From NCBI GenBank assembly GCA_964609835.1, contig CAZSTH010000001.1:34087-98086 (forward strand): a stretch of 64,000 nt of DNA, read 5' to 3'. The notes beneath the pieces were generated by a model. It worked only from the letters and a program-made list of their open reading frames with translations. It had not been told where the DNA came from and did no database searches. The position numbers were made by a program, and so were the translations under genes. The stretch comes from an uncultured Thermoanaerobaculia bacterium. Its GTDB lineage: Bacteria; Acidobacteriota; Thermoanaerobaculia; Thermoanaerobaculales; Sulfomarinibacteraceae. Shown piece after piece: positions 7,700-46,245 of this stretch (position 1 is its first letter; every line of letters starts with the position of its first letter).

Positions 7700-8956
7700 T
7701 TACCGTCGATCGACCTCGCGACGCAAGCGCTCTGCCAGCCGCAGCAGCTCGGGATCTGCGGGAAATCGGTCGAGTCCGCGGGACAGTGTGACCGCCGCCT
7801 CGGCGAAGCGACCGGTTTCGAGCTGCACACTTGCCAACGCTGCGACGTGGCGGGGCTCGTCGGGCTCGATCTCGACCGCTCGTTCGAGCGCCAGCAAACC
7901 GTCGGCTTGGCGACCGGCCTGCAGCGCCACCGCCGCGATCCGGTGCAGGAGCCCGACATCCGCAGGCGCCATGCCCCACGCCCGGCGCAGGTGGTCGAGT
8001 GCCTCCTCGTGATCGCCGCGACGCAGCGCCAGGGCTGACAGCGTCACGTACGGCGCGGGCGACGTCCGCTCGAGCGCGATGGCCGCGCGGGCGGCCTCGA
8101 GCGCCCCGTCGCTGTCCCCGAGGCCGTCGCGGGCAACAGCGATCAACGACCAGGAACGCGCCCGCAGGGCGCGCGGGATACGTCTGTCCTGCGCCAGCGC
8201 CTCGAGACTCGCGAGTGCGCTCCGCGACTCTCCCGCCTCCAGCGCCCAGGCGGCCCGCTGGATCACGATCTCGGGGTGACCTCGGAGCGGTTCGAGGACC
8301 GCTGCCGCGCGGTCGCGCTCTCCGTCGGCCCGCAACGAACGCGCCAGCTCGAGGGCTGTCTGAACCCGGCGCCGCGGGTAGAGCGAGCCACGAAGCTCGA
8401 GACCCCAGCGTCGGACCCGGCCCTGGTCCTCCGGCGCCAGCTCCACCGGCGGCGATCGCAGTCCGGGCGCCACCGCGTAGGCGACCACCAGATCCTCGAT
8501 CGCGCGGTCGAGGGCCCCGACGTAGAGCAGCACCAGCGCTCGCAGCCGGCGCAGCGAAGGCGACAGCGGATCCAGCGCCACCGCCCGGTCGATGCGTGCG
8601 ACGGCCTCGGACGGGCGGTCTCCCAGAATCGCGGCATGGGAAAGGTGCGTGAAACCGGCCGGGTCGGTCGGCATCCACAGCGCCTGCAATCGTCCCAGCC
8701 GCGCGAGCCCAAGCACGACGGTCTCACGGGACGCACCGCCGAGATCCCGGACCGCCAGCCGCCGGGCCCGGTGGACGAACGACGGCAGCGCCGCCAACGG
8801 GTTTGCGGCGAGGGCCAGCGCACCCGCCTCGGGGTTGACCGAAGCCGTGCCGGCAACCGCCATCCAACCGAGCCATCCCATCGTGTCGACCGATGCCACG
8901 AAGGCGGCGAGGAGCGCGGCCGCGATCCACTGCAGGCGGCGTCGGCGCACCGTCAC
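7700..8956 (-). CDS. membrane-anchored TPR-repeat protein
   Basis: N-terminal TM segment (LQWIAAALLAAFVASV) followed by Ala/Leu/Arg-rich TPR-like repeats. The GTG start overlaps the murB stop (GTGA). Confidence 0.65.
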   Translation of the reverse strand: MTVRRRRLQWIAAALLAAFVASVDTMGWLGWMAVAGTASVNPEAGALALAANPLAALPSFVHRARRLAVRDLGGASRETVVLGLARLGRLQALWMPTDPAGFTHLSHAAILGDRPSEAVARIDRAVALDPLSPSLRRLRALVLLYVGALDRAIEDLVVAYAVAPGLRSPPVELAPEDQGRVRRWGLELRGSLYPRRRVQTALELARSLRADGERDRAAAVLEPLRGHPEIVIQRAAWALEAGESRSALASLEALAQDRRIPRALRARSWSLIAVARDGLGDSDGALEAARAAIALERTSPAPYVTLSALALRRGDHEEALDHLRRAWGMAPADVGLLHRIAAVALQAGRQADGLLALERAVEIEPDEPRHVAALASVQLETGRFAEAAVTLSRGLDRFPADPELLRLAERLRREVDRR

Positions 8957-9945
8957 GGCTCCACCGCCCGCCCGTCCTTATCGACGAAGCAGAGGGTGGT
9001 CACGATCTCGCGGCCGGTTCGCTCCGCGACCCGCTGTCGGATCAAGCGCACGAGCTGGCGGACCTCGTCGGCGCGCGACGACCTCGCTGTCGTCATGAGG
9101 TTGAGGTCGTGGTTCGACAAACGCACGCCACCGACCGCCAGGTTGCCGCAGTCCGCGCGCTCCAACAACTCTTCGGCCGGCACGCCCTCCGCCGGCAGGA
9201 AGGCGGGGCCGGCGCATCGTGGCTGGCGGGGCGGGCGGGATGGAGCTCTGGTCGGCCCGGACGATCCAGTGGGTTGGGAAGACGCCGCCAGGTGCAGCCG
9301 GGCGCGTACGATGATCCGCCGCTCCATCGCCAGCCGCAGTTCAGCCGTGCCGCGCGGTCTCGGGGAGAGCGCCACCCGCTCTATCGGCGCCCCGGGGCGC
9401 GCGAGGTCGACCCAGTCGAGCAATCCGTCGAGGGTCCCGGCCCCCGCGCTCGTCGCCCAGGCAGCCCCGCCCACCGAACCACTCTCCGCCATCAGCCGAT
9501 CGAGGCCGGAGATGCCGGTTCGTGCCGCGGCGTGGGACACCTGTGCCAGGTTGGCACCGCCTCCGGCGACCGCACCGTCGAGGTCGAGCTCCCACAGTGC
9601 GAGCTGGCCGGCAAGAGTGATGACCGGCACTCTGAGCCCGGCGTTCGGCGGCACCAGCCGGCTGCCGGCGCCGAGCACGAGCCATCGCAGACCGTGGGCG
9701 GCAAGCAGGTCGAGAACCCGCTGGAGCCCGTCAGCACTGCGACATCGGATCAGCAGGTCGGCAACGCCACCGATGCCGAGACCTGTCCAGGCTCGCAGGT
9801 CGACCCGATCGTGGACCTCGGGATCGCCTCGCTCGCGAAGATCGCGCAGGTGCTTTCGGAGGGTCGGGAGACCGTCTCGCAAGAGAAATTCACCGCAGTC
9901 TGAAATTCTGGCATGCCCTTTGCGTGTTCGCCGAGTGCCGGGCAC
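8953..9945 (-). CDS. murB: UDP-N-acetylenolpyruvoylglucosamine reductase
   Basis: LRAWTGLGIGGVADLLI...LVLGAGSRLV...GISGLDRLMAESGSVGGAAW and C-terminal SRADEVRQLVRLIRQRV match the MurB layout. The true start is uncertain: GTG 9945, or downstream TTG 9882. Confidence 0.8.
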   Translation of the reverse strand: MPGTRRTRKGHARISDCGEFLLRDGLPTLRKHLRDLRERGDPEVHDRVDLRAWTGLGIGGVADLLIRCRSADGLQRVLDLLAAHGLRWLVLGAGSRLVPPNAGLRVPVITLAGQLALWELDLDGAVAGGGANLAQVSHAAARTGISGLDRLMAESGSVGGAAWATSAGAGTLDGLLDWVDLARPGAPIERVALSPRPRGTAELRLAMERRIIVRARLHLAASSQPTGSSGPTRAPSRPPRQPRCAGPAFLPAEGVPAEELLERADCGNLAVGGVRLSNHDLNLMTTARSSRADEVRQLVRLIRQRVAERTGREIVTTLCFVDKDGRAVEP

Positions 9946-9970
9946 ACAACGACCTGGTATACGACATCAT
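9890..9970 (-). CDS. possible 26-aa leader ORF (MMSYTRSLCARHSANTQRACQNFRLR) overlapping the murB 5' end
   Basis: ATGATG is preceded by the longest purine Shine-Dalgarno tract in the window (AGGAGGAAGGAGGAGG, complement of 9972..9987). It ends 7 nt before a possible murB TTG start. No homology evidence. Confidence 0.25.
   Translation of the reverse strand: MMSYTRSLCARHSANTQRACQNFRLR
9909..9924 (+). promoter_or_regulatory. sigma-54 (-24/-12) promoter
   Basis: TGGCATG-CCCT-TTGCG matches TGGCAYG-N4-TTGCW, with GG at 9910-9911 and GC at 9922-9923 at exact consensus spacing. It is on the strand opposite the surrounding genes, adjacent to a sigma-54 activator gene. Confidence 0.5.
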
Positions 9971-10012
9971 ACCTCCTCCTTCCTCCTGCGGGCTCCGGCC
10001 CGCACTTTTTTT
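9935..10012 (+). ncRNA. candidate sigma-54-dependent small antisense RNA (about 75 nt)
   Basis: Bounded by the sigma-54 promoter (predicted TSS near 9935) and the intrinsic terminator. It contains a 5' hairpin GUGC-CGG-GCAC and a CU-rich stretch ACCUCCUCCUUCCUCCU complementary to the minus-strand SD/AUG. Confidence 0.4.
9987..10012 (+). terminator. rho-independent terminator
   Basis: TGCGGGC-TCCG-GCCCGCA stem-loop, then C plus T7 (10006..10012). The T run follows the hairpin only on the plus strand. It ends 5 nt before the complement of the activator's stop codon. Confidence 0.6.
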
Positions 10013-10016
10013 GGCG

Positions 10017-13000
10017 TCACGCCATCCCCGGATTCTGGAGGCCGAGCTGCCGGAGATGGTACAGCAGCGCCTGGCGCGAGATCCCGAGTTCGCGAGCGGT
10101 CGCACTCCGGTTGCCGCCGTGACGGCGCAGGGCGGCGGTCAGATAGGCGATTCGGAAGTCCCGCTGTGCCTCGTCCCACGCCTTGACCGGGCCCTCCGGC
10201 GACGTTCCGATCGGGAGGTGATCGCTCCGCACGACTCCGCCGTCAGCCCGTACCATCGCCACCTCGACCGCCTTCTGGAGCTCGCGTGCGTTGCCCGGCC
10301 AGTGGTAGCGGCCGAGCGCCGCTTTCGCCTCCGCCGACCACCGCACCGGCTGTAGCCCGTGGAGGCGGACTGCGTCGCGCTCGAACCGTTCGGCGAGGAG
10401 GCTGATGTCGTCGCGACGCTCGCGCAACGGGGGGATGACGAGCGGACACATCGCCAGTCGGTAATAGAGGTCGTGGCGGAAACGCCCCTCTCGAACCCGC
10501 GCTTCGAGGTCACGGTTGGTGGCGGAGAGGATTCGCACGTCGACCGCCACGACGCCATCGGCGCCGACCGGCCGGACCTCCCGGCTCTCCAGAAACCGCA
10601 ACAGCTTGACCTGCAGCGGCGGATCGAGGTCGCCGATCTCGTCCAGAAACAGGGTGCCCCCGTCTGCCGCCATCACCAGACCCCGGCGGGAGCGATCGGC
10701 CCCGGTGAACGCGCCGCGAACCGAACCGAAAAGCTCGGACTCCAGCAGACTCGATGAAATCGCGTTGACGTTGACGGCCACGAACGAGCCCCGGCGCCCG
10801 GAGAGCCGGTGGAGTGCCCGCGCCGCCACTTCCTTGCCGACTCCGGTCTCGCCGAGGATCACGATCGGGAGGTGGCTCGGCCCGAGGGACCTGAGATCCC
10901 GGCGGACCGTCCGGGCGCCGGCCGAGGCACCTGCAAAGCCGGTGTCGCCTCCGTCGTCGTCATCCGCCTCGTCCGGCCTCGCCGGCGCGAAGACAGCCAC
11001 CAGGCCCTTGACGAGGGTCCAGGCGGGGTCGTCGGTCACCTCGCCACCGAGAGGAACCAGCACGACGCTGCCGGAACGGACCTCGGTACCGGTGCCTCCT
11101 GTTCCGTGGTGCCACAGAACGTCGCCGGACCTCCCGTCTCGCACCTCGAGGCCGGTCACGCCGAGGCTCTGCACCAGCGGCTCCGCCAGCTTCCGATCGA
11201 GGTCAGACCATGATCCCTTCTCCACCACCCGCGCCATCGCGGCGACCACATCCGACCGTCCCTGCTCGCACAGCCGCTCGGCCCACCCGTGGAGACCGGC
11301 CGCGCGCAGCGCGTCAACGGCACGCACCCGAACACCCGGGTCGATCGATACCGCGCTGCCGCCGACCCGCTGCGCCAACGCCACCGCCAGAGCCTTCGCA
11401 GCGGAACCCGTCCTGCCGACCTCGGGATCCCCGGCCGGCTCGGTCGAAGCCGCCTCCACGCACCTCGCCGCCACGGCCACTCCCCACGCATCGTCATCGA
11501 CAGTTGTCGGCTCGCGCCCCTCCATCGCGTCCACCAGCGTGGTCCAGACACGTCCCTCCAGTCCGCCCGCTGCGAGGTGGCGCCTCGCCTCATCGAAGCG
11601 ACCCTCCAGCACCTCAGCCGCGCCCTGCAACAGGGCCAGCCCTTCCCCGACCGCGGGGCTGCCGACGTCGGCCATCGTCTTGAACTCGTCGAGCAGCGTC
11701 CGAAACCGCGCCTCGTCGCCGACTGCCAGCGCGAGCCGGCAGAACTCCCCGGTGACGAACAGGCTGTCGGCCTCCCCCGCGGCGAGCAGCTGCAGGCGCT
11801 CCTCTGCCTGCCGGACCCGAAGCTGGTCCACATCGGCCACCGCCAGGTTGAAGACCGCGATCCGCGTCGCGTGGCGGAACCCGGCGGCCTGCAGCAGGCG
11901 GAGCGCACGCAGCTGGTGAAGCTCCGCGCGCCGGCTCCAGCCGGCGGCGATCGAGGCCGCGCCGAGATCGTTCTCGATCACCCCACACCGTCCCGGGCCA
12001 AGCTCCTCGTCGAGCAGACGTGCAAGCATTCGAACCGCGCTGCGGGGGCGTCCGGAGTCGACCAGGTGCAGGGCGCACCGGTACATGATCCGGCCCACGA
12101 GCTCAGGATGACCGCCCGCGATCTCCCGGCGCCAGCCACGGTCTCGTAGCCGCTCGGGCGTGTCGATCGCCGCGAGGTCGATCTCGAGACGTCTGTGCAA
12201 AGGTCCCGAGAGCTTCTTCAAGCGCCCGCGAAGCTGAGAGCGCATCGCGGCGGCAGCGGCCGCGTCACCGCGACGACTGCGCAGCAGCAACTGCCGCGCT
12301 GCGATCTCCGCGGCCACCCGGTCCGCACCAGCGGCTTCCACCGTATCCTGATCCACGAACCAGGTATCGGCCCGACGGTCGAGACAGCCGATCCAGCCCT
12401 CCAGTGCCGGACGGTCGGCATCGGCGGCGCCCGAGCACATGGCCCTGGCGCCGGAGAGATCCAGGACCGAGAGGCAGGACTCGGAAGCCAGGGCCGCGAG
12501 CCGGGGCCCGAGCGCGGTAGGATCGGCGGTCACCAGCAGGTCGCGAACCGTGGCACCGTCCAGGCCATTCAGCCGGTCCCGGGCCCACGACGCCAGGTTG
12601 TCGGTATCGCCGGATGCCAACGCCTGGTGAAGCAGCCGCCGCGGATCCTCTTCGGGATACAGATCTGCGACCGTGCCGTGGAGCGGGCCGGAGCGCATCA
12701 CTCCCGGCTGGGGGAGGCGCCACCGTGCGCGGCCGGTGATGACCTCGAGACCCGCCGCCGCCTGCTCCAGCTCGCCGAGCGTCAGCCCGCAGTGGAGAGC
12801 CACGAAGGCGGGCGGCAGCCCGTCTGGATCCAGCCGCAGGATCTCCTCCAGTCGATCGCTCGGCCCTCGGTCCCCGACCGAGATTCCGGCGGGCGCGGGA
12901 GATTCGAAAAGACGACGGGCGGCTGCCGTCAAAGCCAAGCGGTCGCTCTCGTCGAGCGGATCGAAGCGGCCGTTGCGCTGGTCGACGGCCTTTCGCGACG

Positions 13001-13877
13001 CCTCGGGATCCGGGCCGGCCACCACCAGGTGGCGTCCAAGGTGCTCGCCATCGACGCCCGGCGGCGCAGGCGGATGCCACCCGGGCGGAAACCGGCCGAT
13101 CGCAACCGCGCTGCCACCCCCGGCCCGCGTCCACCGCGACAGCGCAGCCAGCTCGCGGGGGCCGAACTCTCCGGCCAGGATCAGGAGCCCGCTTCCACCG
13201 TCCCCCACCGGGAGCGGCAGCCCGCGTGCATTTCCTGCCTCTCGCACAAGGGCCGAAGATCCGCGCCTGCGGAAAGCCGCCCACAGGCTCACAGCCAGAC
13301 GGCGGGCGAGCGCCGGTCGTGGAACATCCCAGTAGCTGGTGGCCCCCTGCTCCGGCGGCGGCACCGGGTCCCATCGCAGCAACCACAGGCTGCGGGCGGT
13401 CGAGGGATCGAGCGGGCGCGGCAGGTCGGCAAGCTGACGGGCGAGAGCCCGGGAGAGGAACAGGCCCGGCTCACCCCGCTCGACGTCGATCGCGGCCGGC
13501 CTCAGTCCGGCGACTTCGGCGATCGACTCGATGACCGAACGGCGCATGGTTTCCGCGGCGGCCTGTCCCCCGCCGAGGCGCGCCGCCACGCGCGTCAACG
13601 ATACCGGATATCCACCCAGGCGGGCCTGAACTCCGTCATGGGAGCGGATGACCACGGCCTCGCGGAAACCGCGTCGGCCGATCCAGAGGTCGAACTCGGC
13701 CAGCAGTGCCGCTGCAGCCGTCAACTGGACTGCGATGCGGTACCGATCGAGGCGGCCGAGACGTACACCGGCGAGCGGCTCGCCCACCGGTGCCAGGGTC
13801 GGGTGGCCGTCGCCGATCTCCGGGACCGGCACCGCCGGGTGCTCCACGAGCAGCGCGGCGGGCTCGGGCAGCCTCAT
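10017..13877 (-). CDS. sigma-54-dependent transcriptional activator (bEBP) with very large N-terminal region
   Basis: The C-terminal ~310 aa carry Walker A GETGVGKE, an intact GAFTGA loop (SVRGAFTGAD), LFLDEIGD, HWPGNARELQ and a Fis-type HTH (SATARELGISRQALLYHLRQLGL). Start set to ATG 13877, which overlaps the aroA stop (ATGA). The ORF-track start at 13943 would overlap aroA by 70 nt. Confidence 0.9.
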   Translation of the reverse strand: MRLPEPAALLVEHPAVPVPEIGDGHPTLAPVGEPLAGVRLGRLDRYRIAVQLTAAAALLAEFDLWIGRRGFREAVVIRSHDGVQARLGGYPVSLTRVAARLGGGQAAAETMRRSVIESIAEVAGLRPAAIDVERGEPGLFLSRALARQLADLPRPLDPSTARSLWLLRWDPVPPPEQGATSYWDVPRPALARRLAVSLWAAFRRRGSSALVREAGNARGLPLPVGDGGSGLLILAGEFGPRELAALSRWTRAGGGSAVAIGRFPPGWHPPAPPGVDGEHLGRHLVVAGPDPEASRKAVDQRNGRFDPLDESDRLALTAAARRLFESPAPAGISVGDRGPSDRLEEILRLDPDGLPPAFVALHCGLTLGELEQAAAGLEVITGRARWRLPQPGVMRSGPLHGTVADLYPEEDPRRLLHQALASGDTDNLASWARDRLNGLDGATVRDLLVTADPTALGPRLAALASESCLSVLDLSGARAMCSGAADADRPALEGWIGCLDRRADTWFVDQDTVEAAGADRVAAEIAARQLLLRSRRGDAAAAAAMRSQLRGRLKKLSGPLHRRLEIDLAAIDTPERLRDRGWRREIAGGHPELVGRIMYRCALHLVDSGRPRSAVRMLARLLDEELGPGRCGVIENDLGAASIAAGWSRRAELHQLRALRLLQAAGFRHATRIAVFNLAVADVDQLRVRQAEERLQLLAAGEADSLFVTGEFCRLALAVGDEARFRTLLDEFKTMADVGSPAVGEGLALLQGAAEVLEGRFDEARRHLAAGGLEGRVWTTLVDAMEGREPTTVDDDAWGVAVAARCVEAASTEPAGDPEVGRTGSAAKALAVALAQRVGGSAVSIDPGVRVRAVDALRAAGLHGWAERLCEQGRSDVVAAMARVVEKGSWSDLDRKLAEPLVQSLGVTGLEVRDGRSGDVLWHHGTGGTGTEVRSGSVVLVPLGGEVTDDPAWTLVKGLVAVFAPARPDEADDDDGGDTGFAGASAGARTVRRDLRSLGPSHLPIVILGETGVGKEVAARALHRLSGRRGSFVAVNVNAISSSLLESELFGSVRGAFTGADRSRRGLVMAADGGTLFLDEIGDLDPPLQVKLLRFLESREVRPVGADGVVAVDVRILSATNRDLEARVREGRFRHDLYYRLAMCPLVIPPLRERRDDISLLAERFERDAVRLHGLQPVRWSAEAKAALGRYHWPGNARELQKAVEVAMVRADGGVVRSDHLPIGTSPEGPVKAWDEAQRDFRIAYLTAALRRHGGNRSATARELGISRQALLYHLRQLGLQNPGMA

Positions 13878-15148
13878 CCCTCGCCGGGCCCGACCAGCTT
13901 CTCCCAGGTGCTCCAGAAGTCCGGAAACGACTTGCTGACGCACTCGGGGTCGTCGAGCTCGAGCGGTCCGACCGCCAGCGCAGCCACCGCCATCGCCATC
14001 GCCACCCGGTGATCACCGGCCGAGGTCACCCGCGGCGACGGACCGGGAGTGGGCCGCATCGGCGAGTGGACCTCGATCTCGGACTCGCGGACGGTGAGAC
14101 CCGCCCCCAGTCGTCCCAGATTCCGCACCATCACCGTCAGGCGATCACTCTCCTTGTGCTGCAGGTTCTCCAGCCCGGTCAATCGAGAGCCGGCAGGCGC
14201 ACAGGCCGCGACCACCATCAGCGGCGGAAACAGGTCCGGCGTCTGCTTGAGGTCGGCGACCACAGCCGACCTCACCGGCCCCCTGGCCGCGAGGTAGTTC
14301 TGCCTCCAGTCGGCGCCGAGCCCGGCCGCGGTCAAGACATCGAGGATCGCGCGGTCGCCCTGGCGGCTGACCGCATCCAGGGGCCCCATCTCGACCTGAC
14401 CACCGGCGATCGCCGCGGCCGCCATCATCATGGCGGCCGCCGACCAGTCGCCCTCGACCTCGTACAACGCCAGGCGCAACGGACCGGGGGCGACCCGCCA
14501 CCACCGGCGGTCGTTGTCGACGATGACGCCGCCACCGAACGACCGCAGCACGTCTTCGGTGAGATCCAGGTAGGGTGCGGAGGGCAGCTCGCCCACCACC
14601 TGAAGGTCGATCCCCTGCTTCATGAGGGGCGCCGCCAGCACCAGCGAGGTCACGAATTGAGAGGACACCTGCGGTCTGATCGTCGCCTGTCCGCCCTTCA
14701 TTTCGCGTCCCTCGATGGACATCGGCAGCCGCCCGTTCTCGGTCGCGATCTCCGCACCCAGGGACCGCAGGGTCTCCACCAGGGGCGCCATCGGCCGTTC
14801 CCGCAGGCGGGGACTGCCGTCGAGCTCGTAACGCCCGGGGCTCGCCGCGAGCAGGCCGAGGAGCAACCGAGCGCCGGTACCCGAATCGCCGATGTCGATC
14901 CGGACAGCACCCTCGGGGAGGGTTCGACCTCCGACCTCGAGCTCCCGTCCCCAGTCGACCTTCCAGCCGGCGGTGGTGAGCGCGGCGGCCAGCGCCCGGG
15001 TGTCATCGCAGTCGAGCGGCGAGGTCACGATCCCACCGTCGGCCACGGCGGCGGCGATCAGGGCGCGGTTGGTCAAGCTCTTCGACGTCGGCAGCGTCAC
15101 CGAGCTGCGGAAGCTCGTGCGCGGTCCCGGCAGCACCATTGATGTCAT
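13874..15148 (-). CDS. aroA: 3-phosphoshikimate 1-carboxyvinyltransferase (EPSP synthase)
   Basis: LPTSKSLTNRALIAAAVADG...GDHRVAMAMAVAAL matches the EPSPS pattern. Start trimmed to ATG 15148 (MTSMVLPG) with a GGGGAGGA SD. Confidence 0.9.
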   Translation of the reverse strand: MTSMVLPGPRTSFRSSVTLPTSKSLTNRALIAAAVADGGIVTSPLDCDDTRALAAALTTAGWKVDWGRELEVGGRTLPEGAVRIDIGDSGTGARLLLGLLAASPGRYELDGSPRLRERPMAPLVETLRSLGAEIATENGRLPMSIEGREMKGGQATIRPQVSSQFVTSLVLAAPLMKQGIDLQVVGELPSAPYLDLTEDVLRSFGGGVIVDNDRRWWRVAPGPLRLALYEVEGDWSAAAMMMAAAAIAGGQVEMGPLDAVSRQGDRAILDVLTAAGLGADWRQNYLAARGPVRSAVVADLKQTPDLFPPLMVVAACAPAGSRLTGLENLQHKESDRLTVMVRNLGRLGAGLTVRESEIEVHSPMRPTPGPSPRVTSAGDHRVAMAMAVAALAVGPLELDDPECVSKSFPDFWSTWEKLVGPGEG

Positions 15149-15176
15149 TCCGTCTGTCCTCCCCGCATGCTGCCTC

Positions 15177-15935
15177 TTATTGTATCTCCGGTACCGGCCA
15201 CGAGGTCGGACACAGCTGCTGGTCCACCAACCGCCAGCCGCCATCCCCGTCCACCAGCACCGCCGTGCGGCACTCGAGCCACGCCGGAATGATCAGAGCC
15301 TCCCGGTCGCCCTCGGTGGTCCGCCATGTGGAGTGGAAGTGCCCCCAGAACACGACGTCGATACCGGCGTCCCACGCCGACCGCGCCGAGCGCCTGAGAT
15401 CGTGGAGGGGTTTGGTGTAGCGGAACTTGCGGTTGGTTTCGGCGAGCCGGGCCTCCATGGTGCGGACGATCGCTACAGCCACCGATTGCGGCAGCAGCCT
15501 CGCCCAGATCCGCGCGGGCGTCGATTTGGAAAGCCGCGACCAGAAGCGGTACCGAAGGTCGCGGCGGTTGACGAGGTCGCCGTGGTCGAGTCTGAATCGA
15601 ATGCCGCCGGAGGTGAACTCGAGCCGGCGACCGCTCCAGTCGATCTCCGCCGCGAGCTCGGGCGCATCGAGGAAGAAGTCACGGTTGCCCTCCACGATCG
15701 CCACCCGCGTCCCCTCCGTTCGCCGCAGCTCACGCCAGGCCGCCACGACCTCCCGAACCGGGGCGGTCCAGAACTTGGACATGCCGATCAGATACTGGAA
15801 GCCGTCGCCGAGGTAGACGATCTCGCCGCAGCCGGCGGCGACCGCCGACCGGATCAGGGCGATCATGGCCTCCACATCTCCGTCGGCCTGGCCGACGTGG
15901 GCGTCGGCGATGATGAGACGTTTCACGGCCGCCAT
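15177..15935 (-). CDS. lpxH: UDP-2,3-diacylglucosamine diphosphatase-like metallophosphoesterase
   Basis: Collinear with LpxH motifs: IIADAHVG, YLGDGFQYLIG, VEGNRDFF, DHGDL, WGHFH. The ORF-track entry 15177..16517 is trimmed to ATG 15935, because its upstream part is a shadow frame of serC. Confidence 0.75.
   Translation of the reverse strand: MAAVKRLIIADAHVGQADGDVEAMIALIRSAVAAGCGEIVYLGDGFQYLIGMSKFWTAPVREVVAAWRELRRTEGTRVAIVEGNRDFFLDAPELAAEIDWSGRRLEFTSGGIRFRLDHGDLVNRRDLRYRFWSRLSKSTPARIWARLLPQSVAVAIVRTMEARLAETNRKFRYTKPLHDLRRSARSAWDAGIDVVFWGHFHSTWRTTEGDREALIIPAWLECRTAVLVDGDGGWRLVDQQLCPTSWPVPEIQ
15179..15184 (-). promoter_or_regulatory. putative internal -10 box TACAAT upstream of aroA
   Basis: TACAAT overlaps the lpxH stop codon TAA and lies 30 nt upstream of aroA ATG 15148. 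Confidence 0.35.
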
Positions 15936-17956: not shown

Positions 17957-19204
17957 TCAGTCTTCGAGCGGCCTGACGATCAGGCCGGAACGCAGCTTGG
18001 GTTCGAACCAGGTCGACTTCGGCGGCATCACGAGTCCGGAGTCGGCAACCGCGAAGAGCTGGTCGATGGATGTCGGATAGAGGGCGAAGGCGACTGCCCA
18101 CTCCCCGGACTCGACTCGACGCTCGAGCTCCTTCAGGCCACGGATCCCGCCCACGAAATCGATGCGCTCGTCCGAGCGTGGATCGCCGATTCCGAGAACC
18201 GAGGCCAGCAGGTTGTTCTGCAGGATTGCCACGTCGAGCCGGTTGACGGGGTCGTCCTCCGGCACGCCTGCGGCTCGTGCCCGCAGGCGATACCATCGGC
18301 CACGCAGGAACATGCCGAACTCCCGAGCCGTCGCGGGGCGGCCGTCATCGCCCGTCTCGTCCACCTCGAACGCCCCGGACACCGCCTCCAGGAATTGCTT
18401 GTCGGTGAGCCCGTTCAAGTCCCTGACGATCCGGTTGTAGTCGAGGATCTTCATCTGGTTGTCGGGGAAGATCACCGACAGGAAGTAGTTGTAGGCTTCA
18501 TCGCCGTGGTGGTCCGGGTTTGCCTCGCGACGGAGGGCCCGGATCCTCGTTCCCGCGGCCGAGCGGTGGTGGCCGTCGGCCACGTAGAGCTCGGGTACCG
18601 ACGCGAAGGCCCCAACCAAGGCGTCCCGTTCGGCGGGACCGTCGACGACCCACAGAACATGCTGGATGCCGTCGTCGGCGATGAAGTCGTAGGCCGGCTC
18701 GGCGGCGGTCAGACGCTCGACCAGGGCGTCGATCTCGGGCCGGGCCCGGTAGGTCAGGAAGACCGGACCGGTGTTGGCGTCGAGGGCGTCGATGTGCCGC
18801 GTGCGGTCATCCTCCTTGACCGGACGCGTGTGCTCGTGCTTCTTGATCAGATCCGCTTCGTACTCGTCGACGCTCGCCCCGGCCACCAGGCCGGTCTGGA
18901 CGTGGTCACCCATCCGCTGCCTGTAGAGGTAGAGGGACGGCTCGTCGTCCCGCAGCAGGACGCCTTCGTGCATCAACCGCCGGAGATTCTCGGCCCCCTT
19001 GGCGTAAACCTTTGGCGCGTAGACGTCAACGCCGGGCTCGAGGTCGATCTCGGGCTTGACCACGTGAAGAAACGACAGTGGCCGGCCGGCTGCCATCTCC
19101 CGCGCCTCCGGGGTGGACACCACGTCGTAGGGGGGGCTCGCGACCTCGGCGCACAGATCCGGCCGGGGGCGCCATCCCCTGAACGGTTGAACTCGCGCCA
19201 TCAC
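17957..19204 (-). CDS. DUF1015 family protein
   Basis: The N-terminal VQPFRGWRP...SPPYDVV and internal YVADGHHR motifs are typical of DUF1015. First gene of the serA/serC array. Confidence 0.8.
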   Translation of the reverse strand: MMARVQPFRGWRPRPDLCAEVASPPYDVVSTPEAREMAAGRPLSFLHVVKPEIDLEPGVDVYAPKVYAKGAENLRRLMHEGVLLRDDEPSLYLYRQRMGDHVQTGLVAGASVDEYEADLIKKHEHTRPVKEDDRTRHIDALDANTGPVFLTYRARPEIDALVERLTAAEPAYDFIADDGIQHVLWVVDGPAERDALVGAFASVPELYVADGHHRSAAGTRIRALRREANPDHHGDEAYNYFLSVIFPDNQMKILDYNRIVRDLNGLTDKQFLEAVSGAFEVDETGDDGRPATAREFGMFLRGRWYRLRARAAGVPEDDPVNRLDVAILQNNLLASVLGIGDPRSDERIDFVGGIRGLKELERRVESGEWAVAFALYPTSIDQLFAVADSGLVMPPKSTWFEPKLRSGLIVRPLED

Positions 19205-19326
19205 ATCCTCCTCGCGCTCGCTCTGGCGGCAGCGGCATCACTCTCCGGACCGCCGCCGTGGATGAGGGAACTGAATCGATGCCGGCCCGGCAGCGCCCCG
19301 TTCCCGCGGCGACCCGGACCGGCGTC

Positions 19327-45859: not shown

Positions 45860-45872
<13 letters not shown>
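45821..45872 (-). other. perfect 22-bp hairpin overlapping the 3' end of rnpB (terminator-like, no U tract)
   Basis: The arms at 45821..45842 and 45851..45872 are exact reverse complements, with an 8-nt loop. The arm at 45860..45872 is also the 3' strand of RNase P helix P1. Confidence 0.7.

Positions 45873-46245
<373 letters not shown>

Follow-up and report, generated by a model that had tools for sequence, protein, structure and literature searches.

A predicted small RNA gene of Thermoanaerobaculia, conserved beside an enhancer-binding protein gene and marked by a sigma-54-type promoter and an invariant anti-Shine-Dalgarno tract

Introduction

What, if anything, is encoded on the plus strand of the short region between the gene of a large sigma-54 enhancer-binding protein (hereafter the activator) and a murB-like gene, both of which lie on the minus strand, and on which messages would its product act? 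The locus belongs to an uncultured Thermoanaerobaculia bacterium (contig CAZSTH010000001.1, positions 34,087 to 98,086; the whole stretch of 64,000 nucleotides that was analysed is called the window). An earlier note, made from the window alone, had placed here a sigma-54 promoter, an intrinsic terminator and, between them, a CU-rich RNA of about 75 nt silencing the translation of murB and the adjoining TPR gene. Our comparison with related genomes indicates that the region holds a conserved plus-strand gene, constant in its structure and in its linkage to the activator gene, and that this is a previously undescribed small RNA (sRNA) gene across the class Thermoanaerobaculia.

Results

Architecture of the element in the window

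The element opens with a sigma-54-type promoter at 9909..9924 (plus strand; TGGCATGCCCTTTGCG), in which the -24 GG (9910-9911) and the -12 GC (9922-9923) lie exactly 10 nt apart, as the -24/-12 spacing demands. The match to TGGCAYG-N4-TTGCW claimed earlier is therefore right in its GG/GC spacing and wrong in its last base, which is G and not W. A non-conserved spacer (9925..9934, plus strand) separates the -12 element from a predicted +1 near 9935. From the conservation profile, the fold and a covariance model, we predict an sRNA of about 78 nt (9935..10012, plus strand), which would begin with a 5' stem-loop, continue with 27 unpaired nt and close with a terminator hairpin; its minimum free energy (MFE) is -26 kcal/mol (z = -3.5). 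Stem-loop 1 pairs 9936-9942 with 9953-9959 (plus strand) around a 10-nt loop, CACACAACGA. The unpaired region (9960-9986, plus strand) ends in a CU-rich tract of 22 nt, CAUCAUACCUCCUCCUUCCUCC (9965..9986, plus strand), invariant among relatives, which contains three overlapping CCUCC anti-Shine-Dalgarno (anti-SD) motifs and two CAU anti-start motifs, and which stays unpaired in the MFE, centroid and consensus structures. The intrinsic terminator (9987..10012, plus strand) is present as previously claimed: a stem of 7 bp (9987-9993/9998-10004), six of them G-C pairs, closes the 4-nt loop TCCG and is followed by a C and U7 (10006-10012). Between 5000 and 20000, this hairpin with its T7 is the top-ranking terminator-like site. 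The covariance model R1 scores the window copy at 106.8 bits and finds only this one copy in the window.

The window promoter match, taken alone, is not significant and stands at chance level. When at most one mismatch is allowed, the pattern occurs once in the window against 0.77 expected, and at least one match was found in 54 of 100 shuffles; terminator-like sites number six, against 4.9 expected from shuffles. A promoter and a terminator on one strand, 40-120 nt apart, are estimated to occur about 0.01 times per window, a figure that combines the promoter and terminator frequencies and is by itself no proof. The decisive support for an RNA gene is the comparison with relatives, not the window sequence.

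Conservation among relatives

Scanning species-representative genomes with the MurB-like protein yielded 11 loci with a MurB identity of 36-63%, all from Thermoanaerobaculia (Acidobacteriota) and mostly from Candidatus Sulfomarinibacteraceae. Each of the 11 carries a near-identical element in the activator-murB spacer, and so do six further loci reached via more distant MurB-like proteins (L086, L087, L088-L091). The set chosen via neighbouring proteins only (hereafter protein-selected) comprises 18 loci. Metagenome DNA, scanned for an exact 20-nt stretch of the CU tract, yielded 74 loci, 70 of which hold the whole element; the remaining four are chance matches without anything else. The collection amounts to 88 copies (84 complete, 69 unique sequences), all from Thermoanaerobaculia. 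Model R1 gives one copy per locus over 630 kb of related sequence, with no extra copies of the gene in it.

The element matches no described family at the gathering threshold: Rfam 15 (Qrr, Pxr, CrcZ, GlmY, SorX and others) gave no gathering-level match at this locus in the window or in the 11 homologous loci, and a permissive scan of 9700-10200 returned SorX as its best match, at 16.8 bits (gathering threshold 46.6; E = 0.2). The literature that we searched on sigma-54 sRNAs in Acidobacteria and Thermoanaerobaculia held nothing matching this RNA.

The pattern TGGCA[CT]-N5-TTGC is present in all 84 complete copies, and T1 G2 G3 C4 A5 together with T12 T13 G14 C15 are invariant among the 69 unique sequences. 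The commonest reading in relatives is TGGCACGCCGTTTGCTT, and most copies fit the full consensus TGGCAC-N5-TTGCW. Promoter, hairpin and T run follow each other in the same order and spacing in 84/84 complete copies. The spacer is 11-12 nt long and variable in sequence, 64 of the 69 unique copies place the stem-loop 14-16 nt from the -12 C, and the T run measures 5-10 nt in every copy, so that the predicted RNAs of the family span 77-85 nt. The small plus-strand CU-rich RNA with a sigma-54-type promoter and a terminator, as it had been predicted, is thus kept in relatives, with a window length of about 78 nt; the alignment of the orthologous gaps retains GG/GC, hairpin and T run alike, and the stems covary.

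Mean pairwise identity among 14 protein-selected loci rises and falls with these boundaries. It amounts to 48% over the 30 nt that precede the promoter, 85% in the promoter, 49% in the spacer, 88% in the RNA and 22% in the 45 nt downstream, past the T run, while the neighbouring murB coding sequence reaches 73%. Conservation resumes 11-12 nt past the promoter, where the base of stem-loop 1 lies, which is consistent with the predicted start. Such a profile is typical of an sRNA gene and would place the transcript start about 12 nt past the -12 GC, near 9935.

Structure and strand

In an alignment of 46 sequences, 95.6% of the cells of both helices are paired, compared with 25-48% when the partners are slid. 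Compensatory exchanges occur at three pairs: GC/UA/AU/CG in stem-loop 1, and GC/AU and CG/UA at two pairs of the terminator stem, in which 100% of cells are paired. None of 500 shuffles reached the observed covariation score. The 5' hairpin proposed earlier (GUGC-CGG-GCAC) did not survive this comparison, as only 62% of its cells are paired and it lacks covariation; we dropped it as not conserved among relatives, and the conserved stem-loop is the one at 9936-9942/9953-9959.

The six core pairs of stem-loop 1 are 99.6% canonical on the plus strand, against 70.7% on the minus strand. The structure is plus-strand specific, because its invariant G·U pairs turn into C·A mismatches when read on the other strand; the T run, too, lies 3' of the hairpin on the plus strand only. 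Together, the promoter, the T run, the G·U pairs and the lack of conservation of the small open reading frame (sORF) on the minus strand argue for a function on the plus strand. A coding function of this strand is ruled out by indels of 1 nt and 2 nt. The tract shows the strictest conservation: its 22 nt are identical in 18/18 protein-selected loci, deep lineages with shortened activators included.

The murB-like gene and the minus-strand reading frame

Where the murB-like gene begins decides what the RNA could cover. The product of this FAD-binding gene matches FAD_binding_4 and MurB_C just over the Pfam cut-offs and remains well under all NCBIfam MurB cut-offs. Its longest open reading frame (ORF) spans 8953-9945 (minus strand) and starts with GTG 9945. 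Since the MurB alignments of relatives start at query residues 20-28 of this long ORF and most database MurB homologues are 305-314 aa in length, the start is most likely TTG 9882 and not GTG 9945, which would give a gene at 8953..9882 (minus strand). TTG 9882 lies 27 nt past the promoter on the other strand and 53 nt past the RNA 5' end. The RNA would end 53 nt short of the murB start with the promoter in between, and therefore the murB ribosome-binding site could not be covered by it. The overlap with a functional murB element that a cis-antisense RNA would show is thus missing, the start at 9882 being outside the transcribed region.

Several details of the earlier description change with this start. 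The unit had been described as packed into a 71-bp gap; with murB starting at 9882, the gap measures 134 bp and contains both the promoter and the RNA. The tight fit against the activator stop (a 4-nt gap here) is specific to this genome, as elsewhere the last aligned activator residues lie 49-466 nt from the tract. The tract was also said to be antisense to a Shine-Dalgarno (SD) sequence, an AUGAUG and the murB GTG, which holds for the SD and the AUGAUG, whereas GTG 9945 sits in the stem-loop. The minus-strand sORF beginning at this AUGAUG (9970-9965) runs in three frames in relatives and has 3 to >80 codons, sometimes ending deep in murB out of frame, and the 1-nt and 2-nt indels lie just behind its ATGATG. 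Because frame and length vary through these indels, relatives share neither the peptide nor a coupling distance, which rules out a conserved minus-strand sORF as well as its translational coupling to murB.

Database records of the murB-like gene vary at this same end. Many calls (328-352 aa; P0004, P0005, P0013, P0140 and others) extend on their upstream side through the sRNA gene, since a frame remains open in the conserved DNA, and the call of the source genome itself (P0001, 241 aa) is N-terminally short. The murB start annotation in public records is unreliable here, and the 328-352-aa calls should be trimmed. Some relatives (L006, L008 and L011) have, between the sRNA promoter and murB, a mini-ORF of 8 codons with its own SD (for example AAGGAGGG-TC-GTG GAA CAC TTA CGG ATC GCC GCG TGA), the TGA of which overlaps the murB GTG (GTGA), so that it may be a translational-coupling leader. 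Neither the window nor the L004/L005 type has this mini-ORF.

The activator and its neighbourhood

The sigma-54 enhancer-binding protein of 1286 aa is encoded at 10017..13877 (minus strand; stop codon 10017-10019), convergent with the RNA gene. It contains Sigma54_activat (3e-58), AAA_lid_14 and HTH_8 domains, the Walker A motif GETGVGK and a GAFTGA motif at residue 1055; an AAA+ protein of the cognate type, with a GAFTGA loop, is hence present beside the promoter. Every locus reaching that far has an orthologue directly 3' of the RNA gene and convergent with it, and the triad of activator, RNA and murB-like gene is kept in all lineages, including those with short activators. We infer that the adjacent activator most plausibly controls the promoter of the RNA.

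The N-terminal ~980 aa of the activator (10917-13877) gave no Pfam match even at E<=5 and no sequence match in PDB. This part is also the one that varies: the activators next to the same sRNA are ~1290, 457, 412, 329 and 317 aa long (orthologues in L064 and L088-L091), and the N-terminal region is ~150 aa in the L064 group and essentially missing in L089, where the AAA+ domain begins at residue 15. These comparisons suggest repeated exchange or loss of the sensor module next to an unchanging sRNA. The shortest activator consists of AAA+ plus HTH only, like PspF.

The genes around the element form a minus-strand string of DUF1015, serA-like, serC-like, metallophosphoesterase, aroA, activator, murB-like and TPR genes, with the RNA antisense between the activator and murB-like genes. 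The EPSP-synthase-family gene at 13874-15244 (minus strand) is aroA (NCBIfam TIGR01356, 337 bits, cut-off 287), not murA, and a murA-murB regulatory cassette for peptidoglycan was dropped on this ground. The aroA stop overlaps the activator ATG (ATGA). No terminator-like site was found on the minus strand between the activator stop and murB, which makes read-through into murB plausible; the RNA would have perfect complementarity to any activator-murB read-through transcript.

Complementarity of the tract

The complement of the tract, GGAGGAAGGAGGAGGUAUGAUG, is a near-ideal ribosome-binding site, composed of GGAGG repeats and AUGAUG with a 7-nt SD-AUG spacing. We scanned the neighbouring genes and the 64-kb window for targets. 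The best non-self duplexes in the window reach -32 to -28 kcal/mol and fall at ordinary purine-rich sites. The start of the DUF1015 gene (19199-19215, minus strand; GAGGAGGAUGUGAUG) pairs well in the window, where about 14 bp can form with the seed at -29 kcal/mol; this gene is the first of the minus-strand string that also holds aroA, the activator and murB. DUF1015 orthologues in six other loci had no tract match, with the exception of the SD-rich L064. The activator's own translation start shows a perfect tract match of 12 nt only in the L034/L045/L066 subgroup. Conserved targets among the activator, DUF1015, serC-like and TPR genes (aroA and murB by a 10-mer scan only) were sought and none was found.

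Discussion

We favour, with a confidence only slightly better than even, the explanation that the element encodes a base-pairing sRNA dependent on the activator and sigma-54, the anti-SD-like seed of which occludes ribosome-binding sites in trans. Sigma-54 RNA polymerase would bind the -24/-12 element, and the GAFTGA-type AAA+ activator encoded alongside would open the promoter; transcription would begin near 9935 and halt at the hairpin and U run. The unpaired CAUCAUACCUCCUCCUUCCUCC may then act in trans, pairing with several mRNAs around their SD and start codon, and such pairing would block 30S binding, as with other sRNAs carrying anti-SD seeds. The RNA would also pair perfectly with any activator-to-murB read-through transcript. 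A cis-antisense RNA stays complementary to its target whatever its sequence, and yet 22 nt are invariant; hence, partners encoded elsewhere are likely. The earlier note had mentioned action of the CU-rich seed in trans on SD sequences as a further option, and the invariance of the tract now makes it the reading that we prefer.

Several points weigh against this explanation. No trans targets were found in the scan described above, strong complementarity among the neighbouring genes being sporadic, and a tract so complementary to SD sequences could bind most mRNAs non-specifically, in which case a titration or decoy role fits as well as specific targeting does. The tract is identical in all 88 copies, 70 of which were picked by the 20-nt tract pattern, so that its invariance there is given by construction and the unbiased evidence comes from the 18 protein-selected loci only. 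The window promoter is the weakest of the family, with T at position 6 and G after TTGC. A tblastn search with E. coli RpoN found no rpoN in the window or in the fetched loci, and the presence of sigma-54 is deduced from that of the activator. An enhancer site was not recognizable either: over 330 nt upstream, the DNA codes for murB and loses conservation at third codon positions in the ordinary way, and the sole strongly conserved block (9786-9819, i.e., 90-123 nt before 9909) also encodes the MurB motif EVHERVDLRAWT; a site based on conservation was dropped, as the DNA is not conserved beyond the coding constraint. Moreover, the organism is known from metagenome-assembled genomes only.

A purely cis-acting role appears unlikely to us. 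The RNA would be transcribed head-on against the aroA-activator-murB-TPR string and would pair with the activator-murB junction, so that RNase III cleavage, polymerase collision or a roadblock formed by the sigma-54 closed complex would uncouple or lower murB-TPR expression. Such a role would fit the arrangement of activator, RNA and murB-like gene kept in every lineage, the ATGA overlap suggesting that aroA and the activator share one operon, the plausible read-through past a junction without a minus-strand terminator-like site, and a complementarity that is perfect by construction. The fixed position is, however, equally explained by linkage to the activator inside a conserved gene string, and antisense pairing needs no particular sequence, whereas the 22 nt are invariant across lineages in which the flanking proteins share no more than about 36-60% identity. 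The RNA, furthermore, does not overlap the murB ribosome-binding site, the start at 9882 being 53 nt past +1, and the minus-strand sORF that it would mask varies in frame and from 3 to >80 codons. The silencing of murB-TPR translation proposed earlier is not supported, for the same reasons: the ribosome-binding site is outside the RNA, the sORF is unconserved and the invariance of the tract is left unexplained. Another possibility would assign the conserved sequence to the minus strand, as a murB leader in which GGAGGAAGGAGGAGGUAUGAUG loads ribosomes as a super-ribosome-binding site and the plus-strand signals are incidental. The complement of the tract is indeed a near-ideal site with a 7-nt SD-AUG spacing, murB has a TTG or GTG start and poor SDs in several loci, and the AUGAUG frame is open and in frame with murB in four loci, including L008 and L073. 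We nevertheless regard a leader as very improbable, for GG/GC and the T run are plus-strand signals in 84/84 copies, the G·U pairs of stem-loop 1 would be C·A mismatches in a minus-strand transcript, the position of the sORF stop ranges from 3 codons to a point far within murB, out of frame with it, and a ribosome-binding site needs no 22 invariant bases.

A universally conserved partner would readily account for the invariance of the tract, which leads to a decoy or ribosome-directed RNA, a proposal to which we give little credence. In one version, a sigma-54-controlled mimic of the 16S 3' tail would, once induced, compete with 30S for SDs genome-wide, soaking up SDs or an anti-SD-binding factor globally; in the other, 30S assembly would be the stage at which the tract pairs with 16S nt ~1172-1196, a universally conserved segment. 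The core anti-SD ACCUCCU and the three overlapping CCUCC motifs in an unpaired, invariant tract suit the former. For the latter, the best duplex with E. coli 16S rRNA (L092 72-1613) lies at GGAGGAAGGUGGGGAUGACGU and reaches -32.2 kcal/mol, against -20.5 kcal/mol at the next site, a value equalled by 2/300 seed shuffles. This match is, however, post hoc and was found on E. coli rRNA, not on Thermoanaerobaculia 16S; it is equalled by a chance match in the window (-32.4) and requires a 5-nt bulge and two mismatches, and the 16S segment concerned is base-paired inside the mature 30S head. Titrating all SDs stoichiometrically would demand very high RNA levels. If such a role were true, an enhancer-binding protein could throttle or re-programme translation initiation as a whole, and the universally conserved partner would explain why 22 nt remained unchanged across a bacterial class.

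Irrespective of its mode of action, the gene is, as judged from its sequence and setting, a new RNA family of a known design, the activator-adjacent sigma-54 sRNA, with an unusually long invariant seed directed against ribosome-binding sites. In the Qrr RNAs of Vibrio, several mRNAs pair with a long unpaired seed whose sequence is absolutely conserved; qrr1 adjoins luxO, and the Qrr RNAs feed back on luxO mRNA. They are terminator-ended small RNAs transcribed from sigma-54 promoters under a dedicated NtrC-family activator, LuxO (PMC4878744). The RNA described here resembles Qrr1-5/LuxO in being a small terminator-ended RNA with a sigma-54-type promoter and an activator. Unlike Qrr, to which it has no sequence or Rfam similarity, it occurs as a single copy per locus, its gene follows directly 3' of the activator gene in convergent orientation, and its seed is an anti-SD/anti-AUG tract, whereas the Qrr seed is target-specific; the sensor region of the activator, in contrast to that of LuxO, is not a receiver domain and is missing in some lineages.

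In Myxococcus and other myxobacteria, the Pxr sRNA gene occupies the intergenic region beside the sigma-54 activator gene nla19 (PMC5568312). Pxr has a predicted sigma-54 promoter, a fold of multiple stem-loops and a group-wide synteny, and its targets are still unknown (PMC5568312, PMC11928866). The parallel thus extends to an activator-adjacent sRNA, a predicted sigma-54 promoter and synteny across a whole bacterial group. Pxr differs in having three stem-loops in ~108 nt, compared with one stem-loop and a terminator in ~78 nt here; sequence and structure are unrelated, without an Rfam match and from a different phylum, and the present gene lies antisense within the spacer of a co-directional gene pair. 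In Enterobacteria, the sigma-54-dependent GlmY is encoded next to the genes of its two-component activator (GlrR). In Pseudomonas, the sigma-54-dependent CrcZ is encoded directly downstream of cbrAB, whose product CbrB is its activator (PMC8871633). CrcZ/CrcY and GlmY share with our RNA the position beside a sigma-54 activator gene; they differ from it in sequestering proteins (Hfq/Crc, RapZ) via repeated A-rich motifs or mimicry, and they are much longer (CrcZ ~400 nt) and lack sequence similarity.

As regards the seed, RoxS/RsaE and LhrC belong to the sRNAs that carry anti-SD seeds. Anti-SD seeds have been described for AbcR1 and "many other sRNAs" as a common route to translation repression (PMC6234868). 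Similarly, the C-rich loops of 6C are complementary to the SD region and block translation initiation (PMC6486639). The likeness lies in an accessible C/U-rich motif complementary to the purine-rich SD region. The motifs of these sRNAs are short (4-8 nt) and usually reside in hairpin loops, in contrast to the linear 22-nt tract found here, which has three overlapping CCUCC and two CAU motifs and no Rfam match. To our knowledge, no RNA of the AbcR1, 6C, RoxS/RsaE or LhrC type is sigma-54-dependent.

The predicted gene would add a phylum to the design in which an sRNA gene adjoins a sigma-54 activator gene (Qrr, Pxr, CrcZ, GlmY), suggesting that this design is widespread or arose repeatedly. In the literature searched, we found no paper on RNA-based regulation in Thermoanaerobaculia, a class known almost entirely through metagenomes, to which Sulfomarinibacter, a sulfur-cycling sediment bacterium, belongs. 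The locus offers a complete testable module, with a promoter, an activator next door, a 78-nt RNA and an obvious seed, and the sensor-less 317-aa activator of some lineages should be easy to express. With 22 invariant nt complementary to an ideal ribosome-binding site, the tract also prompts one to ask whether bacteria can regulate translation by means of an anti-SD mimic.

Some observations concern single records or lineages. The only Rfam gathering-level match in the window is a class A RNase P RNA (45863-46238, minus strand, 269.8 bits). The L006 record (DATIVB010000056.1) bears the name of a myxobacterium, 'Chondromyces sp.'; the locus itself is near-identical to that of L007 (uncultured Thermoanaerobaculia) and shares the same synteny and sRNA, and the bin is probably mislabelled or contaminated. 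Finally, L002 and L018 have a second, perfectly palindromic hairpin, GAGCCCACAGCTC-GGAGCTGTGGGCTC, between the sRNA terminator and the activator stop, bordered by a T run and, on the opposite side, by an A run. Possibly this is a bidirectional terminator, and if so, the two convergent units of that lineage would be insulated from each other.

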